Source: Pseudomonadales bacterium (GTDB lineage: Bacteria > Patescibacteriota > Microgenomatia > UBA1400 > PJMF01). Taken from it: a stretch of 64,000 bases of DNA. The stretch spans positions 82,905-146,904 of the forward strand of contig JACKFX010000002.1 of assembly GCA_020632255.1 (NCBI GenBank). Reading direction: 5' to 3'. The stretch's first letter is position 1, and the number at the start of each line of letters is the position of its first letter. The notes below the pieces were generated by a model. The model was not told where the DNA came from. It was given only the letters and a program-made list of their open reading frames with translations, and did no database searches. A program made the translations under genes and the position numbers. Positions 4,084 to 34,595 of this stretch are shown one piece after another.

Positions 4084-4092
4084 GAATATCCT

Positions 4093-4377
4093 TTATCGTA
4101 CGTACGCGTATATACCAAAAAGTATACAGAAAACCACTGCTGTAACTATACCAGTTTTGCGAAGATCTTGGTATAGAAGCTTGGTAATTTCTGAACCGAA
4201 ACTTGATTTTACTCCCTTTTGATCCATCAGTGTAGTAGCTTTTTGTTGTTTGGTGGCACTAATTGCATTTTCACCACCAGCTTCTGTTACTACCACTCCT
4301 TCGGCTGAAAAAATAAATTCTGTTGAGCGTTTTTCAGCGGCACGACGTTTTTGAGTTTTTGTTCTTTTTTTGGTCAT
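4093..4377 (-). CDS. Small basic protein with a C-terminal TM anchor; hypothetical
   Basis: 94 aa. Lys/Arg-rich N-terminus and a single C-terminal hydrophobic helix. Tightly packed between rseP and the DUF3048 gene. Confidence 0.35.
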   Translation of the reverse strand: MTKKRTKTQKRRAAEKRSTEFIFSAEGVVVTEAGGENAISATKQQKATTLMDQKGVKSSFGSEITKLLYQDLRKTGIVTAVVFCILFGIYAYVR

Positions 4378-4403
4378 ATATCCTTAGCAATATACTGCAA
4401 CCG

Positions 4404-10334: not shown

Positions 10335-10523
10335 ATGCTCATTATGCAGGTTTTTTTACTGAGTTTCAACAGAGTTGTGGCAAAGTACACTTTATTGTCA
10401 ATTTTGCATCTTTTTGTGTAATTTTGAAGACACAGATTTGCGATAGTAGCAGTAGCTACTTGAGTAAAGATGTAACACTCAAAATTGCCAAAGAGATGTG
10501 AAAGTGCAATGAATGTTAATTTG

Positions 10524-11543
10524 CTACAACTCTGATAAGACTGCTACCTGATGTCCAATTGCGTCTGTAATGAACGGCGGTCTCATGCCCGCAGTGAAGC
10601 TTTCAGGCTCTAAGTATCGAACCATTGGAAACTCTGTTGAATACGTTCCAGTGGTTGTAGTGATTATTTCGCCTGTTTGTGGGTGAACATAGAGTGGCTG
10701 CCACCAGCTGCCATTTGTTTGTATAACAAGATAGTGATAACCCCCATTACTCTCGATATATCGGGTGTAGAACAATTCCTCTGGACTAGGTAGAGGGTAA
10801 ACAGCCAAAACAAACTCGCTTACATTTCCAGCTTCATCACGCAGTACAATCGAACTTTGTTGCACTTCCCCATTTTTTTCGCCATCTGAGAGTTGAAACT
10901 GATACTTTCCACCAATCCAGGTAAACTCTCCAAGTGAGCTGCTTACAACTACCGGACTGGTATCAGAGACCGCTAACTCTAACTGAGTTTCTGCACTTAT
11001 GACGGCAACATCTTGGTGTTTGACAGTAATACTCACAGATTCTGAAAGTAAGTGTGACACAAAACTAAGTGTGTCTTGTCCAGCGGTGTTCGGCACCACA
11101 ACCACATGAGGTGAGGTATCTTGAATCTCAAGACAATCAAGCACAAGTACATCGTTGACTGCATTTTTTATAACCAAACACGGTTCTGATTGATAGCGGT
11201 TCGGAACTGCACTAAACATAATTTCCAGCACAGTGAAAGGTAGATTTGTTGAGACTTCGATTGATTTTTCTTCATTCCCAGTTAATTCCAGCTGAGTTTG
11301 CTGATCTTCACTTGAGTTTACATCAAGTGAATATTCCCGTTCACCGACAGTCAGAGTAACTACCGCAGTAGGTGCTTGAAAATCCGGTACCGTGAATTGA
11401 GCAACGTGTGCCTGAACAGTTCCAGAAAAAAATGAGTGGAGCTGTTGGGGACGAACAAGTAGCGACAAAGATAAGAATGCTAGTATCCCGGTGAATGATA
11501 CTCCCATGGTAACACTGTGACGACTACTTGTTCTTACTTTCAT
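10524..11543 (-). CDS. Secreted protein; hypothetical
   Basis: 339 aa. Signal peptide (MGVSFTGILAFLSLSLLV) followed by GTVQAHVAQFTVPDF. Lies 16 nt downstream of the TasA-like gene. Confidence 0.45.
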   Translation of the reverse strand: MKVRTSSRHSVTMGVSFTGILAFLSLSLLVRPQQLHSFFSGTVQAHVAQFTVPDFQAPTAVVTLTVGEREYSLDVNSSEDQQTQLELTGNEEKSIEVSTNLPFTVLEIMFSAVPNRYQSEPCLVIKNAVNDVLVLDCLEIQDTSPHVVVVPNTAGQDTLSFVSHLLSESVSITVKHQDVAVISAETQLELAVSDTSPVVVSSSLGEFTWIGGKYQFQLSDGEKNGEVQQSSIVLRDEAGNVSEFVLAVYPLPSPEELFYTRYIESNGGYHYLVIQTNGSWWQPLYVHPQTGEIITTTTGTYSTEFPMVRYLEPESFTAGMRPPFITDAIGHQVAVLSEL

Positions 11544-12241: not shown

Positions 12242-15200
12242 TTATGCTTCTTCGATAAACCCATAGGCTAGAAGTTTAGTTACCACAGCGGTCACTAGCG
12301 CAAGCCCTGGGAACCATTGGGTGATCATGGCTAACCATGAACCATCGACGTAACAGCCAGCATCTTTGAAGACGTAGAAGACTGCTACTACTCCAACGGT
12401 GATTGCTGCCACAACACCGAGCTTGAGTAAACCTGGAGTTCTGCGGAAGAACTCAAATGCAAGGATTGAGAGCAACTGCAATGCGAGCAAGATAAGTGGC
12501 AAGTAGTACTTCCAAGCTGAACAGCTGGTTGCACCGAGTACTTCACCTTCCTCAGCTGCCTCTTCTGAGCCAGATTTTTCTGAGCCTTCATCTGTAGCTT
12601 TTTCATCTTCCTGTGAAGATCCGTTGCTACGTGCGCCGAGAATTGCTCCTCGGATACTGTCGCCTTCAATGGTGTCAGTGACACCTAAGACTGTTTCAGT
12701 TCCAGTTGAAGGTTCTGGGCCAACTCGGAACGAGACCTTTGATTCTTTAAAGTTACCGGCATCATCCATAGCTTTAACTGAAAACTCCCAGACACCATCT
12801 TTAAGCTGATCAAGCTTGTGCTTGAAGGTATCGCGACCAACGGTTGCACCTCGAACAGTACCATCCTGATGCTTCCACTCGAGGACGTAACGAGTAACGT
12901 CACTGTCATCCTTTGGTCTTTCCCAAACACCATCTGCATCATCTGCAGTGATGTTTTCAACTCGAACGTTAAGTGGGTAGTCTGCAGGATCGGTGTTGTC
13001 GTAGCGAACATCTTTGACACCGAGATCAGAAACATTACCTACTGAGTCAACTGCTCGATAGTAGAGAATGTTTTGACGCTGTGATGGAGGCTTAATTGGA
13101 CCAGTGTAGGTTGTCCAGTTACCATCAGTAGTGGTATTCCATTGATACTCGATGTAATCAACATCATAGTTGTCAGATGCTGTCAGAGTAATTTCTGGTT
13201 CATAGAGTTTGTACCAACCGTTATTTCCATCTGGAGTTGCAGGATCGATTGTCAGTACGACCTCTGGAATAGTCTTGTCGTAGACAATCTTAATGGTATA
13301 GGTTGTCTCCACGTTGCCAGCGTTGTCGGTGGCGTGTGAAGTGATGTCGTAGATACCTTCTTCGACTGAAGCTTCAGGAATCTGATAGCTCCATGTGTCT
13401 GTACCGGTTGCAGGGACCTGTACTACGCCGGCCTGCCATTCCCCAGTGTCATGATTCCAGTAGACACTGTCAGTTGATCCAAATGGTGTGTACATGATCT
13501 CAAGATCGACTTTAGCTACACCTGAAGTTGCATCAGTTGCAGTTCCTTCAATCAGACCATCAAAACTGTTGGTTTCGACTTCTTCACCACTTTGAGCAGT
13601 GTTGAAGGTAGTAATCACGCTTGATGGATTGACTGTGTCATAAGTATAGGTAACAGCGTCACTCCATGCTCCAACATTACCAAGTGCATCATAGGCACGC
13701 ACTTGAATAGTGAAGTCTCCTTGTACATTTCCTGAAAGACCTTGATCACGATAGAGTCGTGATGCAGGGACCTCTCGATATGCTACCGTTGGAACACCGT
13801 TAACTAAGTACTCGTACTTAATCTCATACTTGTCCATACCGCTTGGGTCGGTCACTTCGGTCCACTCTGCACGGATGGTGTTTACGTTGAAGTACTCACC
13901 TGCAGTTGGAGCAGTGATTGTTGGGACGCCAACAGTATTATCTACCGTTACAGTAACCCAAGACCTTGAACCTGCATCTTTGTTGTCTGCAGCGTCTCGA
14001 GCCTCAAGCTTAATGGTGTAATCTCCACTTGGAAGTGATGAGGTATCCCAGCTTAGAAGTAACTTGTCTGTGAATGAAGTAGTATCATTAACAACTCCAG
14101 GACCTGCAACGGTTTGACCGATGCTGTTCTGAATCACAAACCAGTAGTGATGTGGATTATCGTCTGTGACCGTTCCACGAACATCTACCATACCATGAAC
14201 GATTCCTGCAGTTGGAGTTGTAACTTCGACATCAGGAGCCTGCCAGTCGGTAGTAATAGTACAAGTATTTGACCATCCTGAAGTGTTACCCAAAACGTCA
14301 ACAGATCGTACTTTAATATGATGTGCACCCTCATTAAGTGAACCACTGTACTGAGACTGGGTCAGGTTTGTTGACCAAACACCACGAGTGCCATTTGTCT
14401 TTGGATAGTCAATGTTGTACTCATAGTGATCAAATCCTGCTCCTGAATCTGTTGAGTCAGTCCAATCTACAGTGGTGTTATGAATGTTTGTTATTGCATT
14501 ACACTGTAAATCAGGTGAAACAAAACCTAAGACTTGTGGAGTAGTTGGAGCACTCTTATCGTAGTTAATTTCACAGAAATTACTCCACTCAGAAATTGGC
14601 TCACCTTCGTCAAACCTATTATTACTGTTAAGGTCTGAGTATGCTCTTACACGAGTTTTGTAAGTACCCTCGTTACCACCAAATGTTCCCCAACCTGCAT
14701 AAAAGTTGTCGTAATCATCAGTAAGTGTAGCTAGTACTGACATGTTGTCTGCATCAGCACTTGATGCTAAAGTTACTCTACTTGATTGACCCAGGATAAT
14801 GTCATTCAATCCACCAGGTCTCTGGTTGTGTCGAATATATTTAACATTACTTGCAGATGATGAAACATCAGTCCATGTAGCAGAGGTTTTAACACTGCCA
14901 TTAACTGAAGCTCCACAAACTAAGTCTACAGGGGTGTCAGTTAGTGAACTGCTGTTTTGGAGGTTAAATCCAAGCATTTCTGGAGTTTCTGGGTTAGCTT
15001 GAGTGTAACCTACTCCCAAATATGCTGCTGAGTTTCCATCTAGAGTAGTTTCCCAACATCTTTCAAACTCATCAGATGCAGAAGATTGATTTTCAACAAC
15101 CACTGCATCAGCATAACCTGATGGTGTTTGGTTATTAACATTGACGACATGTTGACCGAGCGCCGCAGGAGACTGGTTATAGCCAACCTTTTCGACACCA

Positions 15201-18187
15201 CATACTCTGTAAGTATTGTTTTCATTAAGAAGACCTTCAAAAGTATACTGTCCAACTTCTGCAGTCTTTGGGGTGGTTTGCTCTTCAACAAAATTCCATG
15301 AGCTGTCATATAAACGAACAGTAAATCCGTCCATTCTTCCATCTGGGTGATCTCCATCTGAAACAAGTCTTAATCCATTATTGTTCTTATCAATAAAGGT
15401 TCTTCCAATAATTTTTCCTAGACAGTCACCTGCATATGATGGATTGTTAAGATCATTAGATGTTAACCAAGGACAGTAAGAAACATTCGTTGAAACTGCA
15501 TCTCCTGTTCCAGGTCCCTCTCCGTCTGGACCACTTGCGTCTCCCCACCAGTTTTTACTTCCATCTACTGATGAAACTGACATGTTGATAAGTCCACCAT
15601 AGTAAGAACCATCAGAGCCAATATAAGTTTGTGCATTTCCTGAAATAATGTTATTTGTAACTACAACATTGGTTGGTCCAGCATTATTTTTTCCTGGCTC
15701 GCCAAGTCTAATACCTCTTTCATTATTAGTAACGGTATTGCCTGTAATGGTTACATTAGAAAGCGTAGCTGGATGTGCTCCATAGGTTGAGCCATCATCA
15801 CGGGCTTTAATCTCAAGTGCAGCACCTTCTTTAACATCATAAGCATTTCCGCTAAATGAACTACCAGTTACAGAAATATTTTGATAATTTTCTTCACCTT
15901 TTAAATTAATGTCGAAACCAGCGTTCCAATCATTATTCCAGAAAGCTGTGTTTCTTCCATTTTCAATGACACTAACATTTGAGAAGCTCGTATCTGAGAG
16001 TTTCTCAACGTAGAGCCCCTTGGCATCGTTATAACTGAAACTTGTTGATTCAACAGTAATATTTGTCGCATTACTTCCACCTGGACCCCAATTACCGTGT
16101 TTGGCAAAATACCAACCATAGGTAAGATGATCAAATGCCGAATCTACAATGTAAAAATCATCAATTGAGCCATTAGTTGAAACCTTAAATCCAGTTTCGC
16201 TTTCAGTATCATTATTCTGATTAGTACCAACAATGTGGACATTATTTAACTCAACATGGCTTACTGTTTTGTCATCTCGGACTTCTAATCCATAGACATT
16301 GACAGGTTCTATGCGCAAATCTTTAATTAACAATTTATCTGTAGAATCTGCTCCAGACGCTTCAAGATTTATAACTCTAAGATTAGATTCCTTTTGTAAA
16401 ACAGTATTTGTGTTTGAATCTGAACCAGAGCCAACTCCAATAAGATCTACATTTTTATTCACAGTGATATTTTCAGTAAACAAACCAGCAAGGATATTGA
16501 TCTGATCATTATCGGTCGAAGCATCAATTGCATCTTGAATTTTCATACCTTTAAGAACCCAATATGTGTCCTCTGCTGTGTTATAAATTAAAATGTCTGT
16601 GTAACTAAATAATCCTGAGCTCATCAAGCCCATTGCAAAGTTTTTGGCATCAGCCAAGCTTTCCTGGTAATACCATTGCATGTAGTCATCGCCTTCACGG
16701 AATGTGTAAACAACATATCCTAATGAGCTAGGTGTGGTAACAGATCCAAATGCTGGATATGTTGGAGGATCTTTTTCGAGTAAAAACTTTGCTGTTTCTG
16801 CTGCTGAAAATGAACCTGAAAATACGATGTTATCTGGACTAACACTTACTGCCTGAACAGAAACACCTCCCCATGGATTACCTGAAGTTGAAATGTTATG
16901 TACAGTTACATTTTGTGAATCCAAAAGCATTAATCCAAATCCACCAGCTGTATCATACACTTCAATATCACTTAATGATGCTGAGGTAACTGTATTTAGA
17001 TCAATTCCAGTCTTTCCTGAATCTTGAACTTTTATATTCTCTAGAGTCACATTATCAACGTGTGAAACTTTAAAACCATAATGGTTGCTACCAATAAGTG
17101 TTAAATCTCTAACTGTGGTATCGTCTCCAAAGTTGCTAATCGCATAACCAGAGAGTCCTTCTGCATCAACAATTGTCACATCCTTACCTGCACCATCAAT
17201 AGTAAGAGACTTACCTTGAAGATTAAGTGTTTCTTCAAAGTTTCCATTTTGAACATAAATAGTTGAGCCATTAGTTGCGGCATTAATTGCCTGTTGAATT
17301 GTGTTATAACAATCTGTTGCTGTAGATGCACCTGCATCAATACATGCTTGGCCAGATAAAGCTGAAGGTGTAGTGACTACAAAGATTGTGAAATGAGTGA
17401 GACCACTCACTTTTTGTTGTTTTCCAACTACTAAACTTTCTACATAGTTTGCTGATTTCAGAGATGAAAGATCTTCTGCATACTTTACATCTGTTTCATC
17501 ACTCCCCTCCGGCCGTGGCAACGTGAGTTCATACTCAAATGTGCCATCTTCCATGCTCGAAGTGATGTCGTAGGCGACAGTGCTGAGAGCGCCAAGTTCG
17601 GCGACTTGCTCGTCGGTTAGGGTGATTTCTTCGATTGAGAGTGTTCCAGGGTTTTCTGGCAACTTGGTAAAGGTGATGGTAACGTCATCATTTTGTGGAG
17701 CTACGTACTTGGTGCCAAGTTCTACTTGGGCAACGGTTGCGACTGCACCGGAGCGAAGCCAAAGTACACCATCAGTGATTTCGTATTCTGCCTTGTAGTT
17801 AGCGTTGCTTAACACAACGGTACCAGAGACAACTTCGTCAGCGACACAGTCTTCACCAGAACAGGTCCCGGCATAGATAGTCTCGCTAAAAGTACCATCG
17901 GTAACTTCAGCAGTGCCTATGACAGCTTCTTCAGGAAGTTCTGGATCAGAGCCACGGTAAGAAAGGACGTAGTCAACTGCGTCACTGGCAGCACCAGTTA
18001 AAGTAAATTCATTTGAGTCTTTATCGAAAGAGAGTGCAACTCCACTAACAGCAACTTCTTGAACCTCGGTAGCAGCGTAGGCAGGAGTTACTAAAAATGC
18101 AGCCGGAGCCACAGTTTGAAAGAGCATCAACACAATGTTGAAGAGGGCGTATACCTGTTGAATATGTTTTTTGAGCATTTTTATCAT
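12242..18187 (-). CDS. Giant cell-surface protein with parallel beta-helix repeats, Ig/FN3-like domains and a C-terminal membrane anchor. The start could be 18247, 18187 or 18178.
   Basis: Uninterrupted 2001-codon ORF. Sec signal peptide (MLKKHIQQVYALFNIVLMLFQTVAPAAFLVTPAYA). NxxG beta-helix repeats (GNTVTNNERGIRLG, NNIISGNAQ). Many T/S/D/N-rich beta domains. Two hydrophobic helices at the extreme C-terminus. An AAGGAAG SD lies upstream of the in-frame ATGs at 18187 and 18178. Confidence 0.8.
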   Translation of the reverse strand: MIKMLKKHIQQVYALFNIVLMLFQTVAPAAFLVTPAYAATEVQEVAVSGVALSFDKDSNEFTLTGAASDAVDYVLSYRGSDPELPEEAVIGTAEVTDGTFSETIYAGTCSGEDCVADEVVSGTVVLSNANYKAEYEITDGVLWLRSGAVATVAQVELGTKYVAPQNDDVTITFTKLPENPGTLSIEEITLTDEQVAELGALSTVAYDITSSMEDGTFEYELTLPRPEGSDETDVKYAEDLSSLKSANYVESLVVGKQQKVSGLTHFTIFVVTTPSALSGQACIDAGASTATDCYNTIQQAINAATNGSTIYVQNGNFEETLNLQGKSLTIDGAGKDVTIVDAEGLSGYAISNFGDDTTVRDLTLIGSNHYGFKVSHVDNVTLENIKVQDSGKTGIDLNTVTSASLSDIEVYDTAGGFGLMLLDSQNVTVHNISTSGNPWGGVSVQAVSVSPDNIVFSGSFSAAETAKFLLEKDPPTYPAFGSVTTPSSLGYVVYTFREGDDYMQWYYQESLADAKNFAMGLMSSGLFSYTDILIYNTAEDTYWVLKGMKIQDAIDASTDNDQINILAGLFTENITVNKNVDLIGVGSGSDSNTNTVLQKESNLRVINLEASGADSTDKLLIKDLRIEPVNVYGLEVRDDKTVSHVELNNVHIVGTNQNNDTESETGFKVSTNGSIDDFYIVDSAFDHLTYGWYFAKHGNWGPGGSNATNITVESTSFSYNDAKGLYVEKLSDTSFSNVSVIENGRNTAFWNNDWNAGFDINLKGEENYQNISVTGSSFSGNAYDVKEGAALEIKARDDGSTYGAHPATLSNVTITGNTVTNNERGIRLGEPGKNNAGPTNVVVTNNIISGNAQTYIGSDGSYYGGLINMSVSSVDGSKNWWGDASGPDGEGPGTGDAVSTNVSYCPWLTSNDLNNPSYAGDCLGKIIGRTFIDKNNNGLRLVSDGDHPDGRMDGFTVRLYDSSWNFVEEQTTPKTAEVGQYTFEGLLNENNTYRVCGVEKVGYNQSPAALGQHVVNVNNQTPSGYADAVVVENQSSASDEFERCWETTLDGNSAAYLGVGYTQANPETPEMLGFNLQNSSSLTDTPVDLVCGASVNGSVKTSATWTDVSSSASNVKYIRHNQRPGGLNDIILGQSSRVTLASSADADNMSVLATLTDDYDNFYAGWGTFGGNEGTYKTRVRAYSDLNSNNRFDEGEPISEWSNFCEINYDKSAPTTPQVLGFVSPDLQCNAITNIHNTTVDWTDSTDSGAGFDHYEYNIDYPKTNGTRGVWSTNLTQSQYSGSLNEGAHHIKVRSVDVLGNTSGWSNTCTITTDWQAPDVEVTTPTAGIVHGMVDVRGTVTDDNPHHYWFVIQNSIGQTVAGPGVVNDTTSFTDKLLLSWDTSSLPSGDYTIKLEARDAADNKDAGSRSWVTVTVDNTVGVPTITAPTAGEYFNVNTIRAEWTEVTDPSGMDKYEIKYEYLVNGVPTVAYREVPASRLYRDQGLSGNVQGDFTIQVRAYDALGNVGAWSDAVTYTYDTVNPSSVITTFNTAQSGEEVETNSFDGLIEGTATDATSGVAKVDLEIMYTPFGSTDSVYWNHDTGEWQAGVVQVPATGTDTWSYQIPEASVEEGIYDITSHATDNAGNVETTYTIKIVYDKTIPEVVLTIDPATPDGNNGWYKLYEPEITLTASDNYDVDYIEYQWNTTTDGNWTTYTGPIKPPSQRQNILYYRAVDSVGNVSDLGVKDVRYDNTDPADYPLNVRVENITADDADGVWERPKDDSDVTRYVLEWKHQDGTVRGATVGRDTFKHKLDQLKDGVWEFSVKAMDDAGNFKESKVSFRVGPEPSTGTETVLGVTDTIEGDSIRGAILGARSNGSSQEDEKATDEGSEKSGSEEAAEEGEVLGATSCSAWKYYLPLILLALQLLSILAFEFFRRTPGLLKLGVVAAITVGVVAVFYVFKDAGCYVDGSWLAMITQWFPGLALVTAVVTKLLAYGFIEEA

Positions 18188-18371
18188 GCTTCCTTTTCTA
18201 AGTGCACACCTGCTACGCGTGCATTTTACTGTTAGGTACAAAGACAAGACAGACGAAAAAATCGCCCTTCAAATCCAATCCTACTATATCAGAATGGAAC
18301 TTGCAAGGATGAAACTCGACGGATATATCAATAAATACACACTACTTACACATCTGGGAAAACAAATATAC

Positions 18372-19565
18372 TTAAAAGAAGCGTCGCTTCACTTTTTCGA
18401 AAATAGTTTCACCAGGTATATACTTTTGGACAATCAGGTAGGTCACAAACAGGATCAAACCAGAGGCCACATAGGGGGCATCCTTCGAAACAACCGCATA
18501 GAGTTCACCCCCCAGAACTGGACCCAAAATGCGGCCCAAACTGGCAGAAGATTGTAGGAAACCCAATGTTCCCCCATATTCTTCTTTGTCAACATTTTCG
18601 GATGCAATTGATTGAATGGTTGGATTAGCCAAACTATTTCCCATCACTAGTAACCCAGTAGAAAGCAGTAATAACCCGATATGAATCGAAAGTGGAATAC
18701 CAGCTAACCCGAGTCCAAGTAAGGGAATACTCATCTTAAAGACGGTTCGCTCACCAAAACGCTTAACCACTCGTGGCAAGACTACTAACTGCATGATTAC
18801 AGACATCACACCGATATAGGCAAATAAGTAGCCCGTTTGGGTTGGACCCCATCCAAGTGTATCTTGGCTCCAAAGTGCAAACGTACCCTGCATGGCAGAA
18901 AATGCCAAACTAATTAAAAAGAAAACCCCAATTAATATTCCCAACACCGGTGTAGCTAATGTTTCTTTCAGTTTTGAAAATGAAAAGCTTGCTTGCTTTT
19001 TTGTAACCGCAGCTTTGACATCAACTGTTTCTTCTAAGAAGAGCGCAGTAGAAATCGCCGCTATACCAGCAATACCAGCGGCAAAGAAAGCCGGTACCCA
19101 GAAACCCCACTGTGATAAGAAACCACCAAGAGCAGGCCCAAAGATGAAACCAAGTCCAAAGGCAGCCCCCAGCATTCCCATACCTTTTGCACGATCTTTT
19201 GTTGTAGTCACGTCTGCGATATAGGCTTGTGCAATTGAAATATTTCCACCAGTGATACCATCTACAATTCGAGCTAAGAACAAGAGTGGTAAGGTATGAG
19301 CAACACCTAAGAGGATGAAACCGGCCACAGTTCCCAATTGAGAAATAAATAACAACTTCTTACGTCCGTATCTATCCGAGAGTCGTCCCATGATTGGAGC
19401 TGCAATAAACTGAAAGAATGAGTATGCAGCAGCAAGAAGTCCAATTTGAAGTGGATTAGCCTGAAATTTCTCTGCAATGAAAGGCAAAAGGGGCAAGATT
19501 AGACCAAACCCCAATAAGTCGATAAATACAATTAAGAAAATAGTCAGTAAGCCTTTTTGTTTCAT
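18372..19565 (-). CDS. MFS transporter
   Basis: 397 aa, 12 TM. MFS loop motif GRLSDRYGRKK between TM2 and TM3. Confidence 0.85.
   Translation of the reverse strand: MKQKGLLTIFLIVFIDLLGFGLILPLLPFIAEKFQANPLQIGLLAAAYSFFQFIAAPIMGRLSDRYGRKKLLFISQLGTVAGFILLGVAHTLPLLFLARIVDGITGGNISIAQAYIADVTTTKDRAKGMGMLGAAFGLGFIFGPALGGFLSQWGFWVPAFFAAGIAGIAAISTALFLEETVDVKAAVTKKQASFSFSKLKETLATPVLGILIGVFFLISLAFSAMQGTFALWSQDTLGWGPTQTGYLFAYIGVMSVIMQLVVLPRVVKRFGERTVFKMSIPLLGLGLAGIPLSIHIGLLLLSTGLLVMGNSLANPTIQSIASENVDKEEYGGTLGFLQSSASLGRILGPVLGGELYAVVSKDAPYVASGLILFVTYLIVQKYIPGETIFEKVKRRFF
18375..18398 (-). terminator. Putative intrinsic terminator overlapping the MFS stop codon
   Basis: On the minus strand the sequence reads GAAGCG-a-CGCUUC followed by UUUUAA. 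The hairpin encodes the last residues KRRFF and the U-run contains the stop codon. Confidence 0.35.
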
Positions 19566-19870
19566 AAGTTTTGATTCTGTTACCTCCAGAAAAATTAGTA
19601 TACTCCCTAAATCTGCCTTTTCCTAGCGTTTAAAAGTTCTGTGCGTAGGTACCCAGAGTTGATGCACCACTACATTGAGTTGGTGCATTACTACTTGTAC
19701 ATTACACATCTTATTCATCCACACACTAGGAACAAACAGTGCAGCTTGCTTAGTTCAGAAGAAAAATACTACAACAAAATGCTAGTAACGAACGCCTGAA
19801 TTCTGTTGAGTAGTAAATTTTTGACATTAGCATCCTACACTTGCATCCATGAGTAATAAAGGTGTACACA

Positions 19871-19899
19871 TTGACATAGGTATGAGTGCATGATATACT
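19871..19899 (+). promoter_or_regulatory. Sigma70-like promoter: TTGACA, 17-nt spacer, TATACT
   Basis: -35 TTGACA at 19871..19876 and -10 TATACT at 19894..19899 with a 17-nt spacer. Oriented toward the ORF at 20036. Confidence 0.45.
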
Positions 19900-19922
19900 A
19901 GTAATTAGACAACAACGCCTTG

Positions 19923-19945
19923 ACGTATCGCGCTGCGCGATACGT
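19923..19945. promoter_or_regulatory. 23-bp perfect palindrome ACGTATCGCGC-t-GCGCGATACGT; putative operator
   Basis: 11-1-11 perfect dyad about 20 nt downstream of the predicted transcription start. GC-rich in an AT-rich spacer. Followed by a second palindrome GTCAATTGAC at 19961..19970 and a T9 run at 19976..19984. Confidence 0.45.
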
Positions 19946-20035
19946 AATTACAACCGGCCAGTCAATTGACGGTCGTTTTTTTTTGTACTAGTTGCAAAAA
20001 AAAGCCGTCCTGGCCATTTAACAAGGAGAATAACA

Positions 20036-20305
20036 ATGAAACAAAATGACATTGGAGTTGAAAAAAAACGAAAAGTCGGGTTTCTCGGTGACTCATTCGT
20101 TGTCTTAGTAAAAAACCTAAGCAAGACAGAATATGTCTGGCTTAGGCATACAAAACACTACACGGGGGGGGCTAGAGGAAACTATGGTGACAGCACCATA
20201 GATATCCACGAGCTAGCTCCGGGGGGGGAATTAACCCTGACAATAGATCAGGACGAATTCCTCCTTGCTCAGAACGAGCAAGGAGTATTATTTCAAAAAA
20301 TCTAG
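20036..20305 (+). CDS. Small hypothetical protein (89 aa) whose ORF carries two G8 homopolymer tracts
   Basis: SD AAGGAG 8 nt upstream of the ATG. G8 at 20164..20171 encodes TGGA and G8 at 20221..20228 encodes PGGE, both in frame. Between them lie the palindromes CTATGGTG-acag-CACCATAG and GAGCTAGCTC. A terminator follows. Confidence 0.5.
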   Translation: MKQNDIGVEKKRKVGFLGDSFVVLVKNLSKTEYVWLRHTKHYTGGARGNYGDSTIDIHELAPGGELTLTIDQDEFLLAQNEQGVLFQKI

Positions 20306-20345
20306 TCTCTTATTTTCCTACAATTAAAGAGCCAAGTGAAAAAAA

Positions 20346-20372
20346 GCCCCACAATATTTGTGGGGCTTTTTA
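20346..20372 (+). terminator. Rho-independent terminator
   Basis: GCCCCACA-atatt-TGTGGGGC followed by TTTT, preceded by an A-run. Confidence 0.7.
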
Positions 20373-20398
20373 CTAATTAAATCTGCTATACTCTAAGT

Positions 20399-20881
20399 GT
20401 GTCTATCTTACCAAAAAACAATTTTTTTCTACTCGTATTTTCCATTCTAATCTCTCAGTTAGCTGGAGTAATTGGTTCTTTTTTTTCTATTTCTTCTATT
20501 CCAACCTGGTACGCAACGCTCACTAAACCATTCTTCAATCCACCTAACTGGTTGTTTGGACCTGTCTGGATCACGCTCTATACGATGATGGGAATTTCGT
20601 TGTACTTAATTTGGCACACTGTCAAATCGAAAAAAAAGGATACACTGATTAAGCTCTTTCTTGGCCAGCTGGTGCTCAATGCATTGTGGTCGATTGTCTT
20701 TTTTGGAGCCAAACAACTAGGGTTAGCCATCATTGTGATTGGACTACTGTGGACGATGATTGTCTCCCTCATTAGAGGTCTCTTTCCACTCAATAGAACC
20801 GCCGCATGGCTCTTGGTCCCCTACATTGCTTGGGTGAGTTTTGCTGCCTTGCTCAATATTGCAGTCTGGTACTTAAACTAA
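20399..20881 (+). CDS. tspO: TspO/MBR family tryptophan-rich sensory protein (CrtK homologue)
   Basis: 160 aa, 5 TM. WYATLTKPFFNPPNWLFGPVWITLYTMMGISLYL matches the TspO N-terminal signature. Trp-rich. Confidence 0.8.
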   Translation: MSILPKNNFFLLVFSILISQLAGVIGSFFSISSIPTWYATLTKPFFNPPNWLFGPVWITLYTMMGISLYLIWHTVKSKKKDTLIKLFLGQLVLNALWSIVFFGAKQLGLAIIVIGLLWTMIVSLIRGLFPLNRTAAWLLVPYIAWVSFAALLNIAVWYLN

Positions 20882-20928
20882 GCATTTGCTATCAAAAAAT
20901 TCACAGATAATAACCCGCACTAGATCCT

Positions 20929-22671
20929 TTATTGTGCTGTAGCATCATCACAAAGCTTCATCACAAGAGATCGCTCTGTTTCGTCGAACTGTGTGCTGTC
21001 ATAAACTCGAAGTGCCAGCTGGTCTTGTGGCTGGTATCGGGTCAGGTGATAATATTCTTTTACTGGCTTGATGCCATTAGGAAACATTTCCCCATCAGAT
21101 GCCGCCGAAATTAGTAAGCTATTTTCTTTTTTTAACATGCAGGGAGCGACATTTGATTTGACTGTAGTAATAGTAATATTTTCAACCCTTCCTAACCCAT
21201 TTATGTTACCGTGCTCACGTGTCTCAGCTAATGACTGAATATGTACTGGATCAATTAAGTTGTACCAAGCAAAAAAGATGTAGACCTGAGTGTCTGTTTC
21301 AGACATAAACACATTGTCATAGCCATGTTGTTTTACATAAATGTCTCTGGCTGCTTCCGAATAGAATCCATGCCAATACGGCTCTGACTGCTCGGGAAAG
21401 AGCAAGTAAAAGTCACGCAGATACAGTGCGACGTTAAACACCATGCCGAAAACTATTCCCAGCCAAATTGCCCAAGAAAAAACCGGATGAAGTTTCTTAG
21501 CAATCGCCTCATACAAAAAAACGATTCCTACTACAGTAAAATAAACCAAGGCAGGAACCATAATCAGCGCACGATTTCCGTTTGGAGCTCCGTTCGTCAA
21601 GCTTGATGGAATTGGAGAAACTAATAACCATGCCAAGAAAAACCACCAGGTTGAATCTTTCTTTCCAAACATAAGTCCCAAAAATAAAAAGGGGATAAAG
21701 AAATACAACAATGAACCATGCTCATAAAATGCATAAGCCGGACTTTGATTAGAGTGTGGGAATAAAAACCCAGGACTAAAGTGGCTTAAGTATTGAGTGA
21801 AAAACAGATCAAAAATGTAAATCCCTTTATTATGAAATACTCTTATCAATGGCAACCCAGTCACCACACTTCTATAAATACCCTTCTCAACCTGAGCATG
21901 AGCAACGTCTTTATTCCAAAAAAACACTGTGCGAGCTCGATCACCAGCGGAACTCCCGAATGTTGCAACAAATATTAACAAAACTGATAATCCGCCCGCT
22001 AAAAAAACTGCAACATTTTCTTGAAAGTACCTTTTAACATTTCCTGAGTAGGTAAAAAAACACTCATGCACCACAATCAATAGTGGTACAAAAAAGCGTG
22101 AGGCATTATAGGTGTACATTGCTAACAAAAAGAAAAATATACCTATTAATCTTTTTTTATACGCATGTATTTCTTGAAAAAAAGCTAAACCAATCAACAA
22201 AAAACTCAACGAAACCATAGGGTCAAATGCGATCCGACTGTAATGCATGTGCCATGGTGTAATAGCCATTATCACCGCCGCCAAAGCACCACTAAAGCTT
22301 GTAGTGTGCTTTTTGACTATATAATAAAACGCTACAACTCCTAAAGATGCTAATAGTACTACTGGCAATCGAGCAAAAAATTCATTGACTGAGAACAGTG
22401 TAAAAAATGGAATCATTAAATAACTTAATAGAGCTGGCTTAAAATCTCCAAAGGCTTCCAAAAAAATAGGCATCGAAACCCCCCACTCATCTTTACCTGT
22501 TTTAAGAATTGAATACGCGTTGTAGGCATAAGACGCCTCATCCCACTGAAATCCCCAAGGAATATGTCCAAGCATAAAAACTCTCAAAACAAAAGCAAAC
22601 AAAAAAATCCCAGCAGGGAGGGTCAATAGATTAAACAATTTCTTAGCCATAATTCTGATAGTAACACTCAA
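20929..22671 (-). CDS. GT-C glycosyltransferase, family 39/83-like (PMT/ArnT-type). The start is probably MAKK at 22650.
   Basis: 580 aa, more than 10 TM. The N-terminal loop carries the DE motif (FQWDEASYAY) typical of PMT/ArnT GT-C enzymes. Its N-terminal 110 aa are duplicated at 28313..28792. Confidence 0.7.
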   Translation of the reverse strand: MSVTIRIMAKKLFNLLTLPAGIFLFAFVLRVFMLGHIPWGFQWDEASYAYNAYSILKTGKDEWGVSMPIFLEAFGDFKPALLSYLMIPFFTLFSVNEFFARLPVVLLASLGVVAFYYIVKKHTTSFSGALAAVIMAITPWHMHYSRIAFDPMVSLSFLLIGLAFFQEIHAYKKRLIGIFFFLLAMYTYNASRFFVPLLIVVHECFFTYSGNVKRYFQENVAVFLAGGLSVLLIFVATFGSSAGDRARTVFFWNKDVAHAQVEKGIYRSVVTGLPLIRVFHNKGIYIFDLFFTQYLSHFSPGFLFPHSNQSPAYAFYEHGSLLYFFIPFLFLGLMFGKKDSTWWFFLAWLLVSPIPSSLTNGAPNGNRALIMVPALVYFTVVGIVFLYEAIAKKLHPVFSWAIWLGIVFGMVFNVALYLRDFYLLFPEQSEPYWHGFYSEAARDIYVKQHGYDNVFMSETDTQVYIFFAWYNLIDPVHIQSLAETREHGNINGLGRVENITITTVKSNVAPCMLKKENSLLISAASDGEMFPNGIKPVKEYYHLTRYQPQDQLALRVYDSTQFDETERSLVMKLCDDATAQ

Positions 22672-28312: not shown

Positions 28313-28792
28313 CTACAAACTTACCTCGTACCTATTTCTCCAAGTAATTGAATTGACCTGAAGTCTGGATCTTCCAAAGCAAGCACTGTGTGAAGCAGTG
28401 TTGACTTTCCCAAACCCCAAGGGTCCAAAAAAAGAAGTATGTTTTTTTACGATGTAGTAAAAAGCTATTATTCCAGCACTGGCTAACAGTGCAACCGGAA
28501 GACGAGCATAGAACTCATTAACTGTAAAAAAGCTAAAAAATGGAATCATCAAATAGCTCAGCAGTGCTGGCTTAAAGTCCCCAAATGCTTCAAGGAATAC
28601 TGGGAACGATACACCCCATTCATCTTTACCTGTCTTAAGAATTGAGTATACATTGTATGCATACGATGCCTCATCCCACTGAAATCCCCAAGGTATTCTA
28701 TCAAGAAAAAAAATACGTAGGGCAAGAGCGAACAAAAATAGTACCACGGGAATACTAGTAATAAGGAGCTCATTCTTTTTCATATAGCCCAT
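28313..28792 (-). pseudogene. Truncated paralogue (N-terminal about 110 aa) of the GT39-like glycosyltransferase at 20929..22671
   Basis: The protein segment FLDRIPWGFQWDEASYAYNVYSILKTGKDEWGVSFPVFLEAFGDFKPALLSYLMIPFF matches 22671-gene residues FMLGHIPWGFQWDEASYAYNAYSILKTGKDEWGVSMPIFLEAFGDFKPALLSYLMIPFF. Nucleotide identity is about 80% over roughly 250 bp. Similarity ends after KKHT and the ORF finishes in unrelated sequence. Confidence 0.65.
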
Positions 28793-33031: not shown

Positions 33032-34069
33032 ATGCAACTTTCACTCTCCGCTTCTATGTCTAATGATGAGATCGCAGAAGTCTTTTCGTTCATCTCTCAA
33101 ATACTAGGTACCGATCCACGAAATCGCTACCGAGCCAGCGCCTACGAAGAAGCCGGAATAGTCATTCAGCACCAAAATGAACAGCTGCTGGATGTCTTCA
33201 AAAAACATACTGCTAACCCCGCAGCATTTACTGAGTATCTTGACTCACTTCCCGGAATCGGAGAGTCTATCAGCAAAAAACTTACCGAACTTTTCACCAC
33301 TGGAAACATCGCATCATTTCAAAAATATGTCGCTAAACTCCCTGGAGGCATGTATCCACTCATGAAGATACATGGCATCGGAGCCAAAAAGGCTCAAAAA
33401 TTAGCCGAAAATTTTGATCTTGATGACCCACAAACAGCTGTCTCAAAATTACTCACTAAAGCCAAACATGGCCAGGTTCAAGGACTGACTGGCTTTGGAG
33501 AAAAAAGTGAACAAGCGCTTATCGAAGCCCTGGAATTACAGCATGGGAAAGCACGTATTCCCTACAACGATGCTTTTTCTGTAGCTAAGAAATTTAAAAC
33601 TTCACTAGAAGACTCAGGATTAACTTCGCGAATTGTGTTTTTAGGAAGCCTGCGTCGCGAAGCCCCTACCGTTGGAGATATCGACGTGGGTGTTGCCACT
33701 CACTCACCCAAAAAAGTTGCCGACTTAATCACTTCACTGCCCTTCGTTAAAAAAACCTTAGTTGCCGGAGATAACTTAGTCAGCGTCATTACTGATGAAG
33801 GTTGGCAGGTTGATACCAAATTTGCACCACTTGCAGAGTGGGGAAGCTTTATTCAACATTTCACTGGTGATAAACAACACAACATAGTGCTGCGCCAAAT
33901 TGCTCTCAAGCAAGGTTTCTCTCTGTCAGAGCATGGTATAAAAATCAAAGTTACCGGTGAAGTTAAGACCTTTGAATCGGAAGATGACTTCTATGCCTTC
34001 CTCGGCTTTGCTCCAATTCCGCCAAGTGAGCGTGTGGGGCGTGATGAGTTTGAAAAGTATAAAAAATAA
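33032..34069 (+). CDS. DNA polymerase X family (Pol beta-like, no PHP domain)
   Basis: 345 aa. HhH motifs LPGIGESISKKL and IHGIGAKKAQKL. Nucleotidyltransferase motif GSLRREAPTVGDIDVGV. Thumb region ending FLGFAPIPPSER. Confidence 0.75.
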   Translation: MQLSLSASMSNDEIAEVFSFISQILGTDPRNRYRASAYEEAGIVIQHQNEQLLDVFKKHTANPAAFTEYLDSLPGIGESISKKLTELFTTGNIASFQKYVAKLPGGMYPLMKIHGIGAKKAQKLAENFDLDDPQTAVSKLLTKAKHGQVQGLTGFGEKSEQALIEALELQHGKARIPYNDAFSVAKKFKTSLEDSGLTSRIVFLGSLRREAPTVGDIDVGVATHSPKKVADLITSLPFVKKTLVAGDNLVSVITDEGWQVDTKFAPLAEWGSFIQHFTGDKQHNIVLRQIALKQGFSLSEHGIKIKVTGEVKTFESEDDFYAFLGFAPIPPSERVGRDEFEKYKK

Positions 34070-34070
34070 A

Positions 34071-34595
34071 CTAAAGTTCGCAATTCAACCAAAAGCCCTT
34101 ATGATTTTCTCGTGCACTCCGCTCTGATTCCCTAAAAACATCTTGAAACTTCACATCTGGCGGATAACTCGTCGCCTGCGCAAAGCCTTCGGCAACCATC
34201 ACTTCATTTACAAACACATCACCAACATAGACATACCCTAACAGCCGACCATATCGATCGGTTTCTGAAACATCTTTCTCAAGTCGTACTTTGTTATCTA
34301 ACACTAATTCCGAAAGCTTGTTGCTTGCCGCATCAAAATAGCACTCTCCTTTTTCGGGGGTATTTATCCCAATCAACCGCACCTTCTGACCACTTTCAAT
34401 TTCGAAGGTATCCCCATCAACGATGCGGGTAACCAAGTAAGTGTCGGACATACTTTCTTCAGGTTGCTGAGTTTCAGCGACAACATCTACCACTTCTTCA
34501 ATTGCTTTCTCTGATCGAGAATTCACAGACACACCCAATCCAGTCAAGAGCACAATTATGAGAGAAACAACCAGCTGCCTTTGTTTTTTAGTCAT
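34071..34595 (-). CDS. Thermonuclease (staphylococcal nuclease, SNase-like), secreted or membrane-anchored
   Basis: 174 aa. N-terminal TM/signal. VDGDTF, VRLIGINTPE, DRYGRLLGYVY and a G.A motif characteristic of the SNase fold. Confidence 0.8.
   Translation of the reverse strand: MTKKQRQLVVSLIIVLLTGLGVSVNSRSEKAIEEVVDVVAETQQPEESMSDTYLVTRIVDGDTFEIESGQKVRLIGINTPEKGECYFDAASNKLSELVLDNKVRLEKDVSETDRYGRLLGYVYVGDVFVNEVMVAEGFAQATSYPPDVKFQDVFRESERSARENHKGFWLNCEL

Follow-up and report, generated by a model that had tools for sequence, protein, structure and literature searches.

The gene and its transcription unit

An orphan protein-coding gene lies at 20036..20305 on the plus strand of the window, the whole 64 kb stretch of DNA that was analysed. 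The gene (MCB9800891.1, H6773_01800) starts with ATG and encodes 89 aa. A sigma-70-type promoter, TTGACA-17-TATACT (19871..19899, plus strand, 11/12), has TG before the -10 box and drives the transcript of the small ORF. This promoter is 100% conserved in L004, the contig carrying the second allele of the gene. An analogous promoter, TTGACT-17-TATACT, was found in L006, another TspO locus.

A structured 5' leader occupies 19905..20035 (plus strand). It contains a perfect 11-bp hairpin (19923-19945), found in the inverted-repeat search, and a terminator-like bulged stem (19955-19975) followed by a T9 run at 19976-19984. The bulged stem was recognised by visual inspection; the terminator scan did not report it. 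An A8 run (19996-20003) and GCCGTCCTGGCC (20004-20015) could pair back onto the T-run and stem. The inverted repeats of the leader are I3, I6, I9 and I10. The leader RNA had a predicted fold of -45.5 kcal/mol (z -4.8, 0/200 shuffles). A Shine-Dalgarno sequence, AAGGAG (20023..20028, plus strand), is located 7 nt 5' of the ATG and is kept in L004 with a spacer longer by 3 nt. A previous reading of the locus from the sequence only had identified this motif correctly and given its spacing as 8 nt, one more than was measured.

The gene is followed by a bidirectional intrinsic terminator, AAAAAGCCCCACAA-tat-TTGTGGGGCTTTTT (20341..20371, both strands, I1, 100%), with a perfect stem of 14 bp. The downstream neighbour is a TspO/MBR gene (20384..20881, plus strand, GTG at 20399, Pfam PF03073). 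An extended -10 element, TGCTATACT, was read from the sequence ahead of TspO at 20384-20392 and is also present in L006, 5 nt 5' of the TspO ATG. The TspO transcript is probably separate and leaderless. The sequence-only reading had described a real, small unit directly 5' of tspO and this description stands, as the unit has its own strong promoter, structured leader, Shine-Dalgarno sequence and terminator.

Predicted protein and searches for homologues

The product was predicted to be a non-secreted, cytoplasmic, all-beta protein of 89 aa with seven strands (AF2 pLDDT 70). The second allele, P0002, encoded in L004, is also 89 aa in length and shares 62% identity with it. The two ORFs differ at 72 nt (27% divergence), comprising 34 transitions and 38 transversions, with zero indels and zero stops. 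Indels between the window and L004 are confined to both UTRs and are absent from the ORF. Synonymous differences in the ORF significantly outnumber non-synonymous differences, and dN/dS between the two alleles was 0.40 (chi-square p ~0.001 in our own test). The gene is real because 72 differences are present without a stop or an indel, dN/dS is below 1 and the AF2 model is all-beta. It is a lineage-restricted gene of a Patescibacteria (Microgenomates/Pacebacteria-like) genome.

The protein had no match in Pfam, PHROGs or PADLOC; the Pfam check had been proposed in the sequence-only reading and returned no family. Only two alleles are known among ~15 billion proteins. A word search of a protein database of 5.8 billion clusters found one further allele and no truncated product. 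A HMM scan of 1.84 billion representatives returned the second allele together with spurious matches to WD40 (P0004) and MBG/YDG (P0003) repeats, which were rejected as coincidences of repeat motifs. Genome, metagenome and viral contigs searched with peptide and degenerate DNA patterns gave no allele beyond this second one. A viral match (L085) was out of frame and was discarded as random. Foldseek against the PDB gave only generic Ig/FnIII-like sandwiches (E ~1e-3). In L006 a 103-aa ORF is located directly 5' of TspO with the same layout of promoter, leader and terminator. It is not a proven homologue (BLASTP E 0.005 over 31 aa, hhalign probability 1.8%) and its AF2 model was poor. A conserved ORF-TspO module was rejected, as other TspO neighbourhoods have DUF2177 and DUF1295 and no small beta ORF.

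Rfam 15 gave no match at the gathering score over 19000-21500, where the best score was 37.5 bits against a threshold of 47. Over the whole window the sole Rfam find was a tRNA-Glu. Weak matches to leader-type families fell on the terminator at 20341..20371 and reflect the terminator alone. These matches, all far below gathering thresholds, are one likeness to the leader-peptide attenuators of trp, his, thr and phe. Tandem rare codons, hairpins and a terminator 5' of a gene are others. Such leader peptides have under ~30 codons, whereas this ORF is 89 codons long and its product is a foldable protein under selection. The hairpins here are not mutually exclusive and do not overlap the terminator, and TspO has its own extended -10, conserved in L006. 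An attenuator was rejected on the basis of ORF length, protein-level selection and this conserved element.

It is highly improbable that the feature is not a protein gene, being instead a structured non-coding RNA with a chance ORF, or that its G runs are artefactual. Exceptional RNA structure, the lack of homologues beyond the lineage and the lack of a Pfam family would fit a non-coding feature. Both the length and the frame of the ORF are preserved across the divergence between alleles, with indels in the UTRs alone, and this argues for a protein. The synonymous excess, the strong Shine-Dalgarno sequence, the consistent AF2 beta fold and the absence of an Rfam family argue in the same direction. 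An assembly or sequencing artefact was rejected, as the identical G8/G8 sequence is present in independent Logan, ENA and NCBI assemblies (at least 8 runs).

Two G8 runs within the ORF

The ORF contains two G8 runs on the plus strand. Run 1 (20164..20171) is within ACG GGG GGG GCT, which encodes T-G-G-A, and maps to a low-confidence loop (42-50) of the AF2 model. Run 2 (20221..20228) is within CCG GGG GGG GAA, which encodes P-G-G-E, and maps to a tight turn from strand 4 to strand 5. Each specifies a Gly-Gly pair through rare GGG codons, the first in a loop and the second in a beta-turn. The runs are 57 nt apart with a spacer of 49 nt and have a common codon phase, NNG GGG GGG GNN. Two in-frame G8 tracts encoding TGGA and PGGE, amid only short G runs elsewhere, had been reported from the sequence, and this was confirmed. 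They are the only G/C runs of at least 7 bases in the 64 kb, the next longest being five C6 runs. There were zero G/C runs of at least 8 in ~170 kb of related Patescibacteria loci.

Dinucleotide shuffles of the window gave a mean of 0.36 G8/C8 runs, with two or more in 7 of 100 shuffles. The count of G8 runs is by itself mildly unusual. We put the chance that two such runs fall within 57 nt of each other on the same strand at ~2e-4. GGG accounts for 11.6% of Gly codons, ACG for 9.6% of Thr codons and CCG for 12% of Pro codons. Given the protein sequence, the probability of both runs was ~2e-6. At the nucleotide level the runs are not random, because GGGGGG encodes none of the 63 other Gly-Gly dipeptides in the 46 window genes and no other G/C run reaches 7 bases. 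Neither chance nor Watson-Crick folding accounts for this choice of codons.

The runs may be a neutral by-product with no regulatory role, arising by in-frame (+3) slippage expansion of a G5 run (X-G-[A/E], NNG GGG GNN). Each expansion would add one extra Gly to a permissive loop, and weak constraint would tolerate the frameshift load. We consider this origin rather unlikely. It would account for the position of both runs at a modelled loop or turn that tolerates an extra Gly, for fast evolution (dN/dS 0.40 compared to 0.044 for the neighbouring MFS gene) and for the dispensability of run 2, which is absent from L004. The lack of any length polymorphism or OFF variant among the sequences found, and the statistical weakness of run 1 conservation, are also consistent with it. 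It does not readily explain two expansions in one gene of 89 codons and zero elsewhere in the 64 kb or in the 170 kb of relatives. The codons preceding the runs, ACG and CCG, are likewise rare and G-ending. Alignment to the L006 analogue, whose homology is unproven, requires no Gly indel at PG(G)E. At site 2, L004 uses the rare GGG for both Gly codons (GGG CCA GGG), and this suggests that G-richness at site 2 is selected.

Hairpins and nucleic acid folding

The following palindromic elements were located inside the ORF. Hairpin A, CCTAAGC-a-AGACA gaata TGTCT-g-GCTTAGG (20116..20146, plus strand, I2), keeps its core in L004, where the outer stem is AACA/TGTT with a shifted register. Hairpin B, CTATGGTG-acag-CACCATAG (20182..20201, plus strand, I12), is a perfect 8-bp stem that extends imperfectly into a longer one (20163-20221), and it lies within a 45-nt island of allele similarity. 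The palindrome GAGCTAGCTC (20210-20219) is a loop-less 10-mer. Hairpin D, CTCCTTGCTC-agaac-GAGCAAGGAG (20261..20285, plus strand, I7), is a perfect, terminator-like stem of 10 bp at the 3' end of the ORF, and a 6-bp core of it is kept in L004. The perfect hairpins of one allele are not those of the other. About 6 hairpins with a perfect 8-bp stem would be expected in 64 kb, and no palindrome here is rare by itself. Taken together, however, they make the locus exceptionally structured. Inverted repeats between the tracts and a structured region had been noted in the sequence-only reading; they were located here, and the fold of 20110-20250 gave a z of -7.1. The mRNA (or single-stranded DNA) is far more hairpin-rich than the protein requires, in both alleles.

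Synonymous removal of the G runs shifted the MFE by ~1-2 kcal/mol. A role as helix arms was rejected as the reason for the runs, given that their removal barely alters the MFE. The sequence-only reading had also raised a quadruplex built from four G tracts. The G arrangement is G3-G-G3-(G+49 nt)-G3-G-G3. A central loop of 49 nt does not fit the canonical G-quadruplex motif, which has four G3+ tracts and loops of ~7 (at most 12) nt, and that suggestion was not borne out in its canonical form. A long-loop quadruplex-duplex hybrid is conceivable.

The G runs and the hairpin may together form such a hybrid, or a different structure that depends on the Gs, in the mRNA or the non-template DNA. It would modulate how the small gene is transcribed or translated, or the stability of its mRNA. 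This was judged unlikely. Four G3 blocks are found in both alleles, as G8 + G8 in the window and as G8 + GGGCCAGGG in L004. The 49-nt spacer folds as a hairpin, bringing the runs together, and it is the non-template (coding) strand that carries them. A central loop of 45-49 nt, however, far exceeds that of a canonical G4. Predicted folds pair run 1 with CUCC and the L004 GGGCCAGGG with CCUGGUCCU, which are ordinary helices. As the MFE is about the same after run removal, the runs can be separated from the excess structure. Bacteria are generally depleted in RNA quadruplexes, which also counts against a G-dependent structure in the mRNA.

The sequence AATTAACCCT (20229-20238) matches the first 10 nt of the T3 promoter. 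It was rejected as a T3 promoter, as the remainder is mismatched and ~0.1 such matches are expected by chance.

A divergent and mosaic allele cassette

The ORF is contained in a hyper-divergent cassette of ~380 bp (19976..20357, plus strand) comprising the distal leader, the ORF and the 3' UTR. The window and L004 are 66-80% identical in the cassette compared to 95-100% in the flanks. The dS was 0.66 in the ORF and 0.089 in the neighbouring MFS gene, a difference of ~7-fold. The MFS gene had a dN/dS of 0.044 compared to 0.40 for the small ORF. A further contig, L092, is 99.7% identical to the window from 20358 onward. Contigs of ~10 samples break inside the cassette. Short contigs ended inside or at the cassette in 9 of 9 cases for TspO and 4 of 4 for MFS. 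Contigs extended a median of 171 nt to the left and 1303 nt to the right (Wilcoxon p 0.014). Three contigs begin at or near run 2 (20223, 20228 and 20230/31).

Contigs L094 and L091 carry mosaic alleles with breakpoints at 20110/11, 20192 and 20227-20231. The cassette is mosaic through intragenic recombination, and between co-occurring strains it diverges far more than its flanks do. The pattern reads as the signature of old alleles under balancing or diversifying selection, with flanks homogenised by recombination. The sequence-only reading had recognised a separate unit, correctly, and had missed the hyper-divergent recombining cassette, which is its most distinctive property.

No silent donor copy, paralogue or repeat of the ORF was found in the 64 kb. 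The 46 window genes include no reverse transcriptase, integrase or transposase, and no MutS or MutL gene was found within the window. An origin as a diversity-generating retroelement (DGR), integron or IS was rejected on the absence of a reverse transcriptase, integrase, transposase or repeat. DGR targets, common in CPR bacteria, resemble the locus in having a localised hypervariable stretch and a small beta-rich protein in a CPR genome. They differ in that the window has no reverse transcriptase or template repeat, the changes are not adenine-specific, and the variation reaches the UTRs and includes indels.

Balanced-polymorphism loci, such as competence or bacteriocin pherotype and immunity cassettes, have a similarly sharp dS peak (0.66 here) between near-identical flanks, several alleles in the same samples and intragenic mosaics. 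Unlike these, the locus has no adjacent toxin, peptide-pheromone, kinase or transporter and its product belongs to no recognisable family.

Alternatively, the hairpins and G runs may themselves stall replication or initiate gene conversion or template-switch mutagenesis, causing the hyper-divergence and mosaicism. This was considered doubtful. Divergence peaks exactly over the structured unit, the mosaic breakpoints (20110/11, 20192 and 20227-20231) are at or near hairpins and run 2, and the perfect hairpins differ between the two alleles. There is a precedent in the pilE G4 of Neisseria gonorrhoeae, a recombination initiator with a cis sRNA, gar (PMC3547852, PMC4412290). Like the pilE G4, and G4 motifs near vlsE and tprK, the G tracts here are on the non-template strand of a transcribed unit. 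They also adjoin or lie inside a gene with mosaic allelic diversity resembling gene conversion. The pilE element, in contrast, is a compact canonical motif of 16 nt upstream of its gene and requires silent pilS donors. The G blocks of the present locus lie within the ORF, 49 nt apart, and no donor copies were found in the 64 kb. The lack of a silent donor or paralogue in the 64 kb, and of a reverse transcriptase, integrase or transposase in the window, argues against a hotspot of recombination or mutation. Old alleles with homologous recombination and balancing selection explain a dN/dS below 1 and conserved flanks more simply, and just two full alleles are known.

In a related and similarly improbable proposal the locus would be a self-diversifying cassette. 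Selected hairpins, and G runs on the non-template strand of a strongly transcribed small gene, would set off recombination or template switching in a structure-dependent manner and would also act as slippage switches. The two activities would produce ON/OFF states as well as mosaic alleles of an orphan beta protein, with exchange between co-occurring strains in place of silent donors.

Run length, frameshifting and possible phase variation

A change of +/-1 in either run gave predicted products of 46, 54, 65 or 113 aa. The claim in the sequence-only reading that such a change truncates the protein thus held, the products being truncated or derailed. A compensating double frameshift producing an alternative internal peptide was rejected, as both alternative frames reach stop codons. 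The same reading had proposed a check for variation in tract length, and none was seen. Run 1 was G8 in all contigs crossing it (9 samples, including the divergent allele) and run 2 was G8 in all window-type contigs crossing it (7 samples). These are consensus assemblies, in which minority G7/G9 subpopulations could remain hidden.

An allele comparison had been proposed as well and divided the two runs, in a comparison of just two full alleles. Run 1 is conserved as G8 in L004. Run 2 is absent there, the equivalent sequence being GGGCCAGGGAAA (L004 reads GGG CCA GGG AAA AAC). Run 1 thus stays G8 across alleles with a dS of 0.66. The surrounding 45-nt island (20157-20201) has one synonymous difference between alleles, and the chance of keeping the three synonymous sites of run 1 was ~0.18 by our own estimate. 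Conservation of run 1 is weak evidence because recombination could have homogenised the island recently.

G/C runs of at least 8 are a standard substrate for slipped-strand mispairing in Campylobacter, Neisseria, Haemophilus and Helicobacter (PMC8355987, PMC5084427, PMC2831843). We tentatively favour the interpretation that the gene is a frameshift-prone, contingency-type locus with stochastic ON/OFF states set by slippage. Run 1 in both alleles, and run 2 in the window allele, would undergo slipped-strand +/-1 frameshifts during replication. A frameshift would truncate the protein after residue 45-64, resulting in ON/OFF switching of a dispensable and rapidly diversifying protein. The ON state would be dominant in all sampled populations. 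Phase variation itself is plausible and unsupported by the run-length data.

Two features expected of a contingency locus were found, namely an over-represented G/C run of at least 7-8 within the ORF and loss of the full-length product on a change of +/-1. A third, the presence of both ON and OFF length variants, was not found in consensus contigs or protein databases. The position of the runs in mid-gene, away from the 5' end, and the small cytoplasmic product, which is neither a surface structure nor a restriction-modification protein, also count against a contingency-type locus. A literature search found no description of slipped-strand phase variation in Patescibacteria.

Patescibacteria (CPR) are ultra-small and mostly episymbiotic, and their mechanisms of strain-level adaptation are almost unknown. 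If slippage at the locus is verified, contingency-locus logic, documented mainly in host-adapted pathogens, would also operate in Patescibacteria. The protein would then probably act where the cell is in conflict with phage, host cell or competitor. If the locus is a self-diversifying cassette, no contingency or antigenic-variation-like system would have been described in Patescibacteria before it. If the runs are inert, the gene is merely a fast-evolving orphan with a curious codon choice. Two results are independent of slippage: a 380-bp unit with ~7-fold higher synonymous divergence than its neighbours, and a coding sequence that is selected, in two divergent alleles, for excess nucleic acid structure. 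Both provide a compact, testable model of overlapping protein and structure constraints.

The contingency-type gene proposed here was compared to known simple-sequence contingency loci, the phase-variable poly-G/C genes of Campylobacter jejuni, Neisseria, Haemophilus and Helicobacter. It differs from them in the lack of length polymorphism in 9 samples and in having two mid-gene runs in a tiny gene. Its product is a cytoplasmic orphan beta protein of a Patescibacterium, rather than a surface or restriction-modification protein. It resembles them in that an intragenic G8 corresponds to the ON state and a change of +/-1 to premature termination. Disfavoured codons build the run, as in such loci, and the gene is strain-variable and fast-evolving.

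Small ORF layout and G8 runs

The small ORF (20036-20305, + strand) is 270 nt in length and encodes 89 aa. AAGGAG ends 7 nt before the start. The sequence-only reading had described a near-ideal SD; the motif was present but its spacing to the ATG was 7 nt rather than the claimed 8. Two G8 runs lie in frame on the + strand, both in the codon phase NNG GGG GGG GNN. Run 1 (20164-20171) encodes T-G-G-A and run 2 (20221-20228) encodes P-G-G-E. As that reading held, G runs elsewhere in the 64-kb window are short, with no other G or C run of at least 7 bases. The inverted repeats it placed between the tracts were confirmed as CTATGGTG-acag-CACCATAG (hairpin B, 20182-20201, + strand) and the palindrome GAGCTAGCTC (20210-20219, + strand). 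Such palindromes are individually not rare. A perfect 14 bp bidirectional terminator (20341-20371) lies 3' of the ORF and the TspO/MBR gene starts at 20399, in agreement with the claim of an own terminator directly upstream of tspO.

Two G8 runs in 64 kb is by itself not extreme. Dinucleotide shuffles contained a mean of 0.36 G8/C8 runs, with two or more in 7 of 100. The chance of two G8 runs on one strand within 57 nt was estimated by us at ~2e-4, and G/C runs of 8 or more were absent from ~170 kb of related Patescibacteria loci. The codon-level case for non-random G runs is stronger than the run-count case. GGG (11.6% of Gly), ACG (9.6% of Thr) and CCG (12% of Pro) are rare codons in window genes and GGGGGG encoded 0 of 63 Gly-Gly dipeptides in 46 of them. 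With the protein sequence fixed, the joint probability of both runs was ~2e-6.

The encoded protein

The 89-aa product matches MCB9800891.1 at every residue; this hypothetical protein (H6773_01800) belongs to a MAG that carries the label Pseudomonadales. The host was assigned to Patescibacteria because the neighboring MFS gene is 73-80% identical to Microgenomates/Pacebacteria-like MAGs. The sole relative among ~15 billion proteins was P0002 (89 aa, 62% identity), encoded on Logan contig L004. An HMM scan across all 1.84 billion representatives added nothing genuine to P0002; WD40 and MBG matches were discarded as motif coincidences. Residues 50-69 (20183-20242), GDSTI-I-EL-PG, recall the WD40 repeat core DxTIKIWELxTG, leading to spurious multi-repeat matches to a TIR-WD40 protein and an MBG/YDG surface protein. 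Genome, metagenome and viral contig scans gave no further real relative. No match was found in PHROGs, PADLOC or Pfam, the last being a search proposed by the sequence-only reading. AlphaFold2 with the two-sequence alignment predicted seven beta strands (pLDDT 70, pTM 0.51), with TGGA in a poorly ordered loop (42-50) and PGGE in a tight turn (61-64). Foldseek against the PDB returned just generic Ig/FnIII-like sandwiches (ApaG, transglutaminase barrels) at E ~1e-3.

Between the window and L004 alleles of the small ORF, 72 of the 270 nt are substituted and neither stops nor indels occur; indels are present in both UTRs. dS was 0.66, dN 0.27 and omega 0.40, and synonymous differences exceeded non-synonymous ones (our chi-square test, p ~0.001). 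The intact frame, the omega and this test support a protein under moderate purifying selection. The small ORF is a real, separately regulated, structured, frameshift-prone orphan gene. The in-frame second allele, its omega and the own terminator bear out the earlier claim of a real, separately regulated unit. That the ORF is not a gene, or an artefact, is highly improbable and was ranked last.

A hyper-divergent mosaic cassette

The most distinctive property of the locus, and a newly found one, is that it forms an orphan cassette that recombines, is hyper-divergent and carries excess structure under selection. The MFS gene and 400 nt of upstream intergenic region are 95-100% identical between L004 and the window. 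From the leader T-run (~19976) to the downstream terminator identity falls to 66-80%, and L092, a contig from the same sample as L004, is back to 99.7% from 20358 on. The MFS gene had a dS of 0.089 (omega 0.044), so the cassette is ~7-fold more synonymously divergent. The small ORF evolves much faster than adjacent genes.

Fifteen further contigs from ~10 runs code for exactly the TspO or MFS protein of the window, with flanks 99.7-100% identical to it. All nine short TspO contigs end within the cassette, at 20111 (twice), 20193, 20223, 20228, 20230/31, 20319, 20342 and 20358. All four short MFS contigs end at 19961, 19982, 20035 and 20191. Median extension was 171 nt on the cassette side compared to 1303 nt on the opposite side (Wilcoxon p 0.014). 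The end of L099 at 20191 and the start of L093 at 20193 imply a SNP at 20192, in the hairpin B loop. L094 differs at 18 nucleotides upstream of 20111; its codons 20-25 read FSAKEI, compared to SFVVLV in the window and SYQLFV in L004. L091 is a mosaic, resembling L004 up to 20230 and the window thereafter. These variants exposed at contig ends indicate that multiple alleles coexist and recombine inside the small ORF. We infer that the cassette comprises old allelic classes under balancing or diversifying selection, with flanks homogenised by recombination. The small ORF has no paralogue or silent copy in the window, which also lacks genes for MutS/MutL, a transposase, an integrase or a reverse transcriptase.

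A second strain-variable stretch (17900-18200) is 75-92% identical to L004, with neighboring sequence at 97-100%. It is the N-terminal part of a 2001-aa surface protein (12242-18247, - strand). NCBI contig L098 diverges completely from the window beyond 17493.

Nucleic-acid structure

The predicted fold of 20110-20250 reaches -50.1 kcal/mol (z -7.1, 0 of 200 shuffles) and that of the leader (19905-20040) -45.5 kcal/mol (z -4.8). When 6386 windows across the 64 kb were compared, the top 25 by structure included seven from this locus. Against synonymous codons resampled from window codon usage, the whole ORF (-85.2 kcal/mol) was 4.4 sd below expectation and the L004 ORF 3.4 sd below (each 0 of 400). 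Control gene segments (n = 103) had a mean z of -0.36 and a minimum of -3.6. The cores of hairpin A (20116-20146) and hairpin B do not differ between alleles. The 45-nt island of run 1 and hairpin B (20157-20201) carries one change, which is synonymous, compared to ~4.4 expected (p ~0.07, or ~0.02 adding the hairpin A core, both our estimates). L004 differs in the outer stems and has a new 9-bp hairpin (GGGCCAGGG/CCTGGTCCT). A structure-driven recombination or mutation hotspot was considered improbable and ranked fourth.

Recoding GGG GGG with alternative Gly codons, in one run or in both, shifted the MFE by just ~1-2 kcal/mol. The excess structure is real, yet the homopolymers are left unexplained by folding. 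A G-dependent structural or regulatory element, ranked third and unlikely, is favored by the rare GGG codons kept at both sites in both alleles, although the runs are dispensable for predicted folding. Four G3 blocks are thereby preserved and a long-loop quadruplex-duplex stays conceivable. The quadruplex suggested from the sequence did not match the canonical motif, its central loop being 49 nt. The structured character proposed for the region was found. After correction for GC, no 140-nt stretch of the window is more structured than one in 10361-10540 (+ strand; -50.5 kcal/mol, 32% GC, residual z -5.4), which is intergenic between two unannotated genes and has no Rfam family match.

Promoter, leader and TspO context

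A strong promoter (TTGACA-17-TATACT) and ~130-nt leader precede the small ORF (19871-20035). In the leader, a perfect 11-bp hairpin and a terminator-like T9 stem are followed by A8+GCCGTCCTGGCC, which is able to re-pair with these upstream elements. Codons 9-12 of the ORF (20061-20071) are likewise complementary to the leader T-run (19973-19983). Promoter and leader up to the T-run are 100% conserved in L004. The leader may be an attenuator, thermosensor or small RNA; it had no Rfam family match.

L006, a Pacebacteria MAG contig (MFS 73%, TspO 62% identical), has the same layout. A TTGACT-17-TATACT promoter is followed by a hairpin leader whose A6/T7 helix lies beside the SD, then by a 103-aa ORF (structure z -2.6), a terminator and TspO. 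This ORF is a positional analogue of the small ORF, and its product is at most a putative homologue of the 89-aa protein. An extended -10 box, TGCTATACT, lies directly after the upstream terminator, 6 nt before the TspO GTG in the window (20384-20399) and 5 nt before the ATG in L006 (4393-4381, - strand). This suggests a conserved, putatively leaderless TspO mRNA. In other TspO relatives the flanking genes are DUF2177 (upstream) and DUF1295 (downstream) in place of the small ORF, which is therefore lineage-restricted. In L005, the closest species-level relative (MFS 80% identical), the stretch upstream of MFS (3159-4724) is occupied by msrA/msrB-like genes and a large ORF of serine-recombinase type, and both the small ORF and TspO are missing from it. 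The locus is therefore rearranged between related genomes.

Function of the G runs

A G8 run is a substrate for slippage (PMC8355987, PMC5084427, PMC2831843). Shifts of +/-1 gave products of 46, 54, 65 or 113 aa instead of 89, broadly in line with the claim that such a change would truncate the protein, and compensating double shifts reached stop codons with no frame rescue. Tract-length variation was not seen across contigs: run 1 was G8 in every crossing contig (9 samples, both alleles) and run 2 in every window-type contig (7 samples). Mosaic alleles, not length variants, at least partly account for contig starts at 20223-20231. The phase-variable reading was partly borne out: the gene is frameshift-prone, but the data lend switching no direct support, as length variants and truncated products (protein databases) were not found and run 2 is not conserved, its site in L004 reading GGG CCA GGG AAA. 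Neutral expansion of Gly codons in frame, in a gene under weak constraint, is possible, if doubtful, and was ranked second. The small ORF is probably a simple-sequence contingency locus. A frameshift-prone contingency-type gene that is ON in all samples was ranked first, tentatively. No such locus or phase variation in Patescibacteria was found in the literature searched.

Other window features

A carotenoid cluster in this Patescibacteria genome (28832-32976), 8 kb from TspO, encodes a polyprenyl/GGPP synthase, a lycopene cyclase domain, a phytoene synthase and a CrtI-like desaturase. The original name of TspO, crtK, comes from the crt cluster of Rhodobacter. Next to the carotenoid cluster are genes for a PolX-like polymerase (33032-34069) and for an SNase-like nuclease (34071-34595). 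Positions 22303-22605 and 28436-28738 share 303 nt at 74% identity. The former lies in a PMT_2 glycosyltransferase gene (20929-22671, - strand) and the latter in a 159-aa ORF with no Pfam match (28313-28792, - strand), which is probably a partial paralogue.
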